Positions 1-78 of a stretch of DNA of 49,689 bases are shown here, piece by piece. The position numbers were made by a program, and so were the translations under genes. Origin of the DNA: Polyangia bacterium (GTDB lineage Bacteria > Myxococcota_A > Polyangia > Haliangiales > JADYYK01). The stretch's first letter is position 1; each line of letters begins with the position of its first letter. The notes beneath the pieces are model-generated. The model searched no databases. It was not told the origin of the DNA and was given only the letters and a program-made list of their open reading frames with translations. The stretch is taken from assembly GCA_044229835.1 (NCBI GenBank), contig JBGASF010000046.1, positions 1 through 49,689 on the forward strand, in the 5' to 3' direction.

Positions 1-78
1 CGAGCACGAGCACGAGCACGAGCACGAGCACGAGCACGAGCACGAGCACGAGCACGGGCACGGGCACGGGCACGGGCG
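1..78. repeat. Hexanucleotide microsatellite (CGAGCA)x9 followed by (CGGGCA)x4. In the frame of the downstream ORF it reads (Ser-Thr)n(Gly-Thr)n with no stop.
   Basis: Direct reading of the sequence. Frame 3 is open from the window edge through the TTG at 87. Confidence 0.9.

Follow-up and report, generated by a model that had tools for sequence, protein, structure and literature searches.

AGCACG microsatellites in an uncultured Polyangia-like myxobacterium: probable slipped-strand arrays in Ser-Thr linkers and at gene ends

Introduction

Why should one short DNA motif be repeated in tandem at so many separate places along a single contig, in some cases inside a gene and in others within the spacer between two genes? 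The window analysed here is an entire 49,689-bp MAG contig of an uncultured Polyangia-like (soil) myxobacterium, with a G+C content of 71 %. Its initial annotation had drawn attention to recurrent arrays of a six-base unit, proposing that they are read in frame as Ser-Thr linkers, that they might constitute contingency loci or length-variable linkers, and that their intergenic copies lie at the ends of convergent genes. Here we set out what the arrays are, how they are read where they are translated, how they differ between strains and sister species, and which explanation best accounts for them. We consider it probable that they are true bacterial microsatellites, generated by slipped-strand events and then filtered by whatever their surroundings will tolerate.

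Results

One hexanucleotide, one orientation

Tandem Repeats Finder and an exact period-6 scan of the window both recover perfect tandem arrays of the unit AGCACG, present also as its rotations CGAGCA, GAGCAC and ACGAGC; the arrays first described by eye are therefore confirmed, at coordinates correct to within ~2 nt, and two that had been missed (34331–34344 and 34959–34980) can be added to them. At its left end the contig begins inside an array of (AGCACG)9.3 (1–56, + strand), the copy number being that of the visible part, which runs into a variant (GCACGG)4.3 array (52–77, +). A perfect (CGAGCA)13.7 array follows within hisZ (10653–10734, +), and a short (CGAGCA)2.3 copy (15738–15751, +) is located in a divergent intergenic region, ~20 nt upstream of the start of a − strand gene. 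Further along, a coiled-coil gene (33947..34759) contains a short (CACGAG)2.3 copy (34331–34344, +), and a spacer between convergent genes holds (CACGGT)3.8 (34769–34791), (CACGGAC)3.6 (34787–34811) and (CGTGAC)3.7 (34959–34980), the last being the exact reverse complement of the 34769 array. Towards the right end of the window we find (GAGCAC)2.7 overlapping the TGA stop codon of a GDPD gene (39423–39438, +), (GAGCAC)7.8 positioned 2 nt past the TGA of a DJ-1/PfpI gene (43670–43716, +) and a compound array of ACGAGC/ACGAGG units (49449–49543, +) that continues as (CGAGTT)2.7 up to position 49555.

The 12-mer AGCACGAGCACG occurs 36 times in the window, on the + strand every time, against an expectation of 0.03 +/- 0.17 from dinucleotide-preserving shuffles; with 7.8–13.7 perfect copies, the arrays stand well above what composition would produce, as is characteristic of microsatellites. 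Eight out of eight AGCACG copies are carried by the + strand (two-sided binomial p ~0.008). Across 120 loci, the orientation of the arrays has no clear link with local GC skew (50 versus 70, p ~0.08–0.1), the 8-kb skew used for this comparison being a noisy proxy. Nor are the arrays artefacts of assembly, because they recur in independent MEGAHIT, Logan and JGI contigs as well as in a long-read contig of 8.02 Mb.

Other tandem repeats of the window are unrelated to the AGCACG family: an 18-nt unit present 3.2 times, in frame, at 4144–4201 (−) within an ABC-F-type ATPase gene (3886..5880, −), and a set of 21-, 18- and 9-nt in-frame coding repeats at 14168–14383 (+) in a zinc-ribbon/GYF protein.

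Two sources of comparison are used in what follows. Loci from other strains were recovered by exact-protein look-up in other assemblies, and are 99.7–99.9 % identical to the window; two congeners, found by way of protein clusters, are referred to as G1 (GCA_963853155.1, the 8.02-Mb long-read contig; loci L127 and L128) and SJ525 (G2; GCA_020853705.1, ‘Deltaproteobacteria bacterium SJ525’; locus L132).

The long coding arrays are read as Ser-Thr tracts

The 10653 array lies within hisZ, the gene for the ATP phosphoribosyltransferase regulatory subunit (9539..11050, +; the exact start codon is uncertain), the end of which overlaps purA, the next gene downstream, by 4 nt; no hisG is present within the 49,689-bp window. 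The open reading frame matches the Pfam family tRNA-synt_His (4.6e-83, residues 46–361), its best match among solved structures is the HisZ entry 3od1 (1.6e-35), and the top Foldseek matches of its model are HisZ structures (3od1 and 8oy0); homologues, from Kofleriaceae or Polyangia, are named as ATP-PRT regulatory subunits by their sources. The protein has the class II core fold of HisRS-like proteins and is nearer to HisZ than to HisS.

The array itself is translated in frame as (ST)13, and in the AlphaFold model this tract is contained in a stretch (residues 311–332) with pLDDT < 50, flanked by a core and a C-terminal domain with values of 84–90. The C-terminal domain is modelled confidently with a beta-alpha-beta-alpha-beta-beta-alpha topology, and the model aligns over its full length with both HisZ and HisRS structures in Foldseek. 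A Pfam search with the C-terminal 104 residues returned no match; judged by the AlphaFold topology and the full-length Foldseek alignments, this alpha/beta domain is consistent with an anticodon-binding-like fold. Reading frame, Pfam, AlphaFold and Foldseek are thus in agreement with the arrangement first proposed for hisZ, that of an (ST)13 linker between a HisRS-like core and an anticodon-binding-like domain. Whether orthologues of HisZ share the linker had been left as a question, and the answer is that the tract is missing from 21 out of 21 aligned sequences. It is predicted to be unstructured, sits between folded domains and has no counterpart in orthologues, as would be expected of a disordered Ser/Thr linker; from the alignment, it appears to be a lineage-specific insertion that replaces part of a short and already variable linker. 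O-glycosylation, suggested at the outset for such tracts, is unlikely in this instance because HisZ is cytoplasmic.

The array at the left end of the contig belongs to a 5'-truncated gene for an exported cytochrome-c-like protein (3..1640, +). Frame 3 of the window reads (ST)9 through the first array and (GT)4 through the variant array, then enters a conserved region with the CxxCH motif HCARCH, which bears out the claim that (ST)9(GT)4 is encoded upstream of a CxxCH domain; the match to Pfam Cytochrome_CBB3 is weak (E = 3.3e-4, under the gathering score). Orthologues of this protein (P0122–P0124) have an N-terminal signal peptide immediately before the conserved region, and the ST/GT tract would therefore be a linker or tether that follows the signal peptide. 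In the protein from locus L127 of G1 the order is signal peptide, (PT)n and then (ST)n: at 9655–10000 of this locus the orthologous gene has a (CCGACG)7.3 array, translated as (PT)n, and after it the ST array. The L127 gene also has a 1-nt frameshift at the end of its ST array and is called only from an internal Met; either the gene is a genuine pseudogene or the frameshift is an indel error of Nanopore sequencing within the repeat. The sole 1-nt indel between the window and strain locus L001 is found at position 1639, beside the stop codon of the first open reading frame (1638–1640).

Both long coding arrays of the window, in hisZ and in the first open reading frame, are accordingly translated as Ser-Thr, but the supposition that coding copies would always be found in this frame does not hold. 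The short 34331 copy is in the frame His-Glu-His-Glu, as calculated from the listed start of its open reading frame; SJ525 encodes (HE)10 in a HypB-like GTPase, within its metal-binding N-terminal region; and across other phyla His-Glu appears to be the commonest reading. A scan for (AGCACG)5 in 185,579 species genomes, with one genome per species, gave at least 113 stretches; among the matches listed, about 35 are from Myxococcota, 26 from Planctomycetota and 22 from Actinomycetota (judged by record titles), with SJ525 contributing at least 11 of the 113. In other phyla the coding copies among these matches are mostly in the His-Glu frame and some in the Ser-Thr frame, according to a rough gene caller. 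Comparison of the window by blastn with the 113 loci listed in the motif scan revealed no homologous locus, and a literature search for the AGCACG motif found nothing relevant. Ser-Thr tracts are likewise encoded in SJ525, as (ST)13 after a lipobox, as (ST)9 between the domains of a MerR-STAND-TPR regulator, and in a Ser/Thr kinase that has an ST-rich tail beyond its transmembrane helix.

Codon usage helps to separate what is dictated by the DNA from what is dictated by the protein. In nine confident genes of the window, AGC accounts for 32 % of Ser codons and ACG for 24 % of Thr codons; CAC and GAG account for 97 % of His and 99 % of Glu codons in the window. Since the ST tracts use AGC and ACG only, both of them minority codons, they follow the DNA motif and not codon preference, which points to repetition at the level of DNA rather than to selection at the level of protein.

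Long arrays differ in copy number between strains; short arrays do not

In ~57 kb of alignment between the window and its strain loci, all indels of 6 nt or more fall within microsatellites. The window, L001 and L002 share a hisZ array of 13.7 copies, and in L003 it has 11.7; in G1, which has 94 % nucleotide identity to window positions 1–11680, it occupies the same place with 9.7 copies, and in a JGI contig of a G1-like strain it has 6.7, remaining pure across all of these strains and congeners. The 43670 array, of 7.8 copies in the window, reaches 9.8 in L004, whilst L006 has 6.5 copies followed by one TACGAG unit and L005 has 6.5 followed by two; mutated units are themselves duplicated. The Logan contigs that encode the DJ-1 protein (L007–L013) end inside this same array in five cases out of seven, and at the bases just before it in the other two, and present two alleles of the base that precedes it. 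In the 49449 array it is the order of ACGAGC and ACGAGG units that varies among strains: L004 has five ACGAGC-to-ACGAGG swaps at 49460–49496, out of 21 mismatches in the whole 14.7-kb alignment.

The short arrays of 2.3–2.7 copies (15738 and 39423) are identical in all assemblies, the 15738 copy being invariant in L001 and L002, whereas every array of at least 7.8 copies for which a second assembly or congener is available proves to be variable; these alleles are read from metagenome assemblies, in which a consensus can hide or distort heterogeneity within a sample. Copy number changes by whole units between conserved flanks, and instability is greater in the longer arrays, which is the length dependence expected of slippage.

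All of the coding alleles observed are in frame, in keeping with the argument that a hexamer unit preserves the reading frame at any copy number. The idea of ‘contingency or length-variable linkers’ consequently divides into two: linker length does vary between strains and species, but on/off phase variation is not supported, because a 6-nt unit causes no frameshift and the intergenic copies are located at 3' ends rather than in promoters. The arrays do not qualify as phase-variable contingency loci, although the 15738 copy and two arrays of SJ525 do sit near 5' ends. Neither of the grounds on which the initial annotation might have fallen, invariance of the arrays or a hisZ repeat that is not translated as ST, is found to apply.

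Could the arrays be adaptive ‘tuning knobs’, kept since linkers of changing length would let the behaviour of a protein vary heritably and reversibly? Possible targets would be the coupling of HisZ to HisG and with it histidine feedback, the reach of periplasmic or lipoprotein tethers, and the metal capacity of His-Glu tracts. In SJ525 the ST arrays are indeed at typical tether sites and the HE array in a metal-binding N-terminus, and the hisZ array has stayed pure and in the same position despite 6 % nucleotide divergence. Purity combined with a variable number of units is, however, equally expected under neutral slippage; moreover, the 21 HisZ orthologues work without the tract, the codons employed are non-preferred, and the intergenic copies of AGCACG are left unexplained. 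We regard an adaptive role as unlikely, and see no evidence that any particular linker length is selected; slippage, constrained by tolerance, remains the preferred account of the variation.

Intergenic arrays open directly after stop codons

Turning to the arrays between genes, the 39423 array is 7 nt from the stop codon of a convergent eCIS-core gene and the 43670 array 19 nt from that of a convergent cyclase gene. The spacer between convergent genes around 34769–34980 is 231 nt in length and nearly all microsatellite, holding in addition a 27-nt CCGCCCG-rich unit present 3.9 times; within it, the 34769 and 34959 arrays make a perfect 22-nt inverted repeat. At these three places the initial annotation was right to put the intergenic copies at convergent gene ends. 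It was not right for the 49449 array, which begins 1 nt past the TAG of a 189-aa gene and is followed ~240 nt downstream by a gene on the same strand (its + strand start is visible in L004), nor for the 15738 copy with its divergent, 5' location. In seven cases, drawn from three genomes, intergenic arrays start 0–3 nt past the stop codon of a gene that has AGCACG on its sense strand.

Possible ‘read-through tails’ encoded after the stops (G(ST)n, DEHE..., LPHHGHG..., ARAR...) were considered and rejected, being no more than chance allows.

Arrays that open so close to stop codons, and occupy most of the convergent spacers, might be RNA or DNA structural elements, serving as bidirectional terminators or REP-like 3' stem-loops for the convergent genes; imperfect hairpins are possible on both strands, and the inverted repeat of the 231-nt spacer is perfect over 22 bp. 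When six array stretches are folded as RNA, on one or both strands, the energies correspond to z = −2.1 to +0.9, the best of these (−2.1) belonging to the coding hisZ array and not to an intergenic one. The intergenic arrays fold no better than their dinucleotide shuffles (z = +0.46, −1.07, −0.49, +0.90 and −0.60), U-tracts are lacking from them, and a terminator scan found no site at any array; on these grounds a role as terminator or REP-like element is unsupported, the arrays having the properties of neither intrinsic terminators nor REP elements. The AGCACG motif also appears in coding and 5' contexts, and orthologous spacers in sister species do without arrays, one of them being only 9 nt long. 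A structural role is, in our estimation, very unlikely, leaving tolerated slippage as the favoured explanation for the intergenic arrays as it is for the coding ones.

Sister species differ in their intergenic arrays, some of which lie at synteny breakpoints

Comparison with the congeners suggests that intergenic arrays turn over rapidly enough for sister species to differ in their possession. As the counterpart of the 231-nt spacer, G1 has 52 nt that include (GCACGA)2.7, and SJ525 has 9 nt without an array; the 49449 array is absent from SJ525, which has an array of its own with 7.2 copies, 3 nt from the stop codon of a − strand gene; and G1 has an extra array of 9.2 copies, separated by 3 nt from the TAG that precedes it and by 9 nt from a convergent gene. 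In these alignments the intergenic arrays come and go from one sister species to the next and are not conserved.

Adjoining the 231-nt spacer there is a further difference in gene content. Where the window has one coiled-coil gene (33947–34759), each congener carries a tandem pair of paralogues with 79 % identity to one another (L128 5998–6759 and 6841–7584 in G1); the single gene suggests a deletion by recombination between paralogues, because blastn matches it to parts of both.

Two of the arrays of the window coincide with the limits of synteny. Homology to both congeners extends as far as 39419 and is lost 3 nt ahead of the TGA with which the 39423 array opens; at this point the ancestral C-terminus of GDPD has been replaced, and an island specific to the window (39420–45681) follows. 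Homology to SJ525 stops again at the first bases of the 49449 array (~49453), and the other junction of the SJ525 island is 13 nt from its 7.2-copy array. In full, the breakpoints are placed at 39419–39424, 45682 and 49453 of the window, 13192–13247 of L132 and 11995 of L128.

The island of the window contains genes for an eCIS-core protein, a LysR protein, DJ-1 and a cyclase; at the same site there are teneurin/RHS-type genes in G1 and a DAPG-hydrolase-like gene in SJ525. The eCIS-core gene (39446–41878, −), found at this locus only in the window lineage, encodes a protein of 810 aa, which begins with an eCIS_core domain at its N-terminus (PF13699, 2.5e-28) and may be a toxin-like cargo of the variable island. 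Beyond the island, the 853-aa product of a gene at 46293–48854 (+) has domains of the Major Vault Protein, with Pfam matches to MVP_shoulder (8.7e-27) and Vault_3 (3.9e-9); the gene adjoins a pacifastin-like gene and has a conserved counterpart in the sister genome (L132 13845–16406).

Dispersed repeats act as portable homology around ‘minimal mobile elements’ in other bacteria, and the arrays might similarly supply portable homology for the gain, loss or exchange of cassettes, or alternatively be products of the rearrangement junctions themselves. Beyond the breakpoints just described, all of the regional arrays are in direct orientation, and the long ones, at 47–107 bp, could in principle serve as substrates for RecA-dependent recombination, the array at the 39423 junction being only 16 bp. 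Breakpoints and arrays are both restricted to intergenic spacers in any event, however, and conservation normally ends at stop codons; the junctions are few, a post-hoc test for two of three breakpoints falling in four of 17 spacers gives p ~0.12, and no reciprocal recombination product is seen. Dispersed homology is, as a general explanation of the arrays, distinctly unlikely, slightly less so the narrower proposal that co-oriented arrays mark, and possibly mediate, junctions of cassette gain and loss in this Polyangia genus. If true, the latter would explain the arrays at breakpoints 39419 and 49453 and at the SJ525 island junction, together with the stop codon of the truncated GDPD gene, created at an array boundary, and the shared orientation would mean that recombination yields deletions and insertions rather than inversions. 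For the present, we treat the coincidence of arrays and breakpoints in these alignments as a lead and not as a result.

Carriage of the arrays by a mobile element was also entertained, and rejected because the flanks of the arrays in the window have no sequence in common.

Discussion

A mechanism for the AGCACG arrays

Taking the allele patterns as a guide, we propose that slipped-strand mispairing, at the time of replication, both lengthens and shortens the arrays. With an A at every third position of the unit, either strand could form a CAG-like hairpin and stabilise the slipped intermediate; the predicted folds are of this type, an A.A (or T.T) mismatch coming after every two G-C pairs. CAG-type hairpin geometry is one that favours slipped structures, and loops of 6 nt are poorly corrected by MutS-type mismatch repair, from which the intermediates would then be expected to escape.

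Tolerance would decide which of the resulting arrays survive. Inside genes, the 6-nt unit keeps the frame, and long arrays would persist only where the protein can accept, or profit from, a flexible stretch of low complexity: as Ser-Thr linkers between domains, after signal peptides or lipoboxes, or as His-Glu metal-binding tracts. Between genes, they would be confined for the most part to very short 3'-end spacers, where neither a promoter nor a ribosome-binding site is disturbed. The outcome at the level of protein would be a set of disordered linkers of variable length, exemplified by HisZ with (ST)6 to (ST)13.

Three features have no obvious explanation if the arrays are purely neutral: the single-strand orientation of all eight copies, the tendency of arrays to start just past the stops of genes with AGCACG on the sense strand, and the coincidence of arrays with breakpoints.

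Relation to known repeat systems

AGCACG is an ordinary kind of bacterial microsatellite, and its arrays belong to the known long-SSR class, for which there are precedents in PMC4679880, PMC3315296 and PMC1574311; what is new is a well-documented case in an uncultured Polyangia-like genus. LSSRs, with units of 5–11 nt, are described from the large genomes of free-living Burkholderia and Xanthomonas, and of some Actinobacteria and Cyanobacteria (Mrazek, Guo & Shah 2007, as summarised in PMC4679880). Going by that summary, the resemblance extends to perfect repeats beyond chance, a sporadic taxonomic distribution, copy number that is polymorphic between strains, units in multiples of three inside genes and slippage as the proposed mechanism. 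The arrays described here differ from that survey, to the extent that it is covered by the same summary, in the dominance of one hexamer, heptamers there being the commonest class, and in their host, a Myxococcota genus outside the ten most repeat-rich genomes that the summary names.

Closer parallels can be found in individual lineages. The SSRs of Burkholderia mallei and B. pseudomallei, which change during passage and infection, are similar in their high GC content, in having indels both in and between genes, and in altering protein length in frame (PMC1574311, PMC3352902); unlike those SSRs, which have many unit lengths and are discussed in terms of phase or antigenic variation in a pathogen, the arrays here switch no frames, and the genes that they affect include a housekeeping regulator, HisZ. 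As with the TAACTGA heptamers of the marine Beggiatoaceae, which are intergenic, we see one motif at many loci of one lineage and sporadically in unrelated phyla; TAACTGA arrays are, however, directly upstream of start codons, with a regulatory role proposed (PMC4679880), whereas those of AGCACG are mainly past stop codons or in genes. Localised hypermutation through SSR slippage is shared with the contingency loci of Haemophilus, Neisseria and Campylobacter (PMC11868660), although these have units of 1–5 nt or 7 nt within 5' coding or promoter regions and switch genes on and off, something that a 6-nt unit in a linker or at a 3' end cannot do.

In the geometry of their predicted hairpins the arrays are also like CAG/CTG triplets, with A (T on the complement) at every third base and two G-C pairs preceding each mismatch; unlike those triplets they are bacterial and alternate AGC with ACG as a hexamer, and no expansion-disease biology is implied.

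Significance

The contig analysed here starts inside one array and ends 134 nt past another, the ERZ contigs L004 and L005 end near microsatellite tracts, and the Logan contigs (k=31) break off within the 43670 array or at its edge. The arrays explain where short-read assemblies of this lineage break, and its short-read MAGs probably contain too few of the arrays that exceed the k-mer or read length.

AGCACG arrays would matter more only if their link with breakpoints were to prove general. As they stand, they provide a clean case, drawn from multiple assemblies, of microsatellite-driven variation in linker length, affecting both the housekeeping protein HisZ and exported proteins, and offer ready-made strain-typing markers of the MLVA type for this genus in metagenomes. 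They also illustrate how one DNA motif, read in two frames, can give two peptides: Ser-Thr tethers in the one and His-Glu metal-binding tracts in the other.
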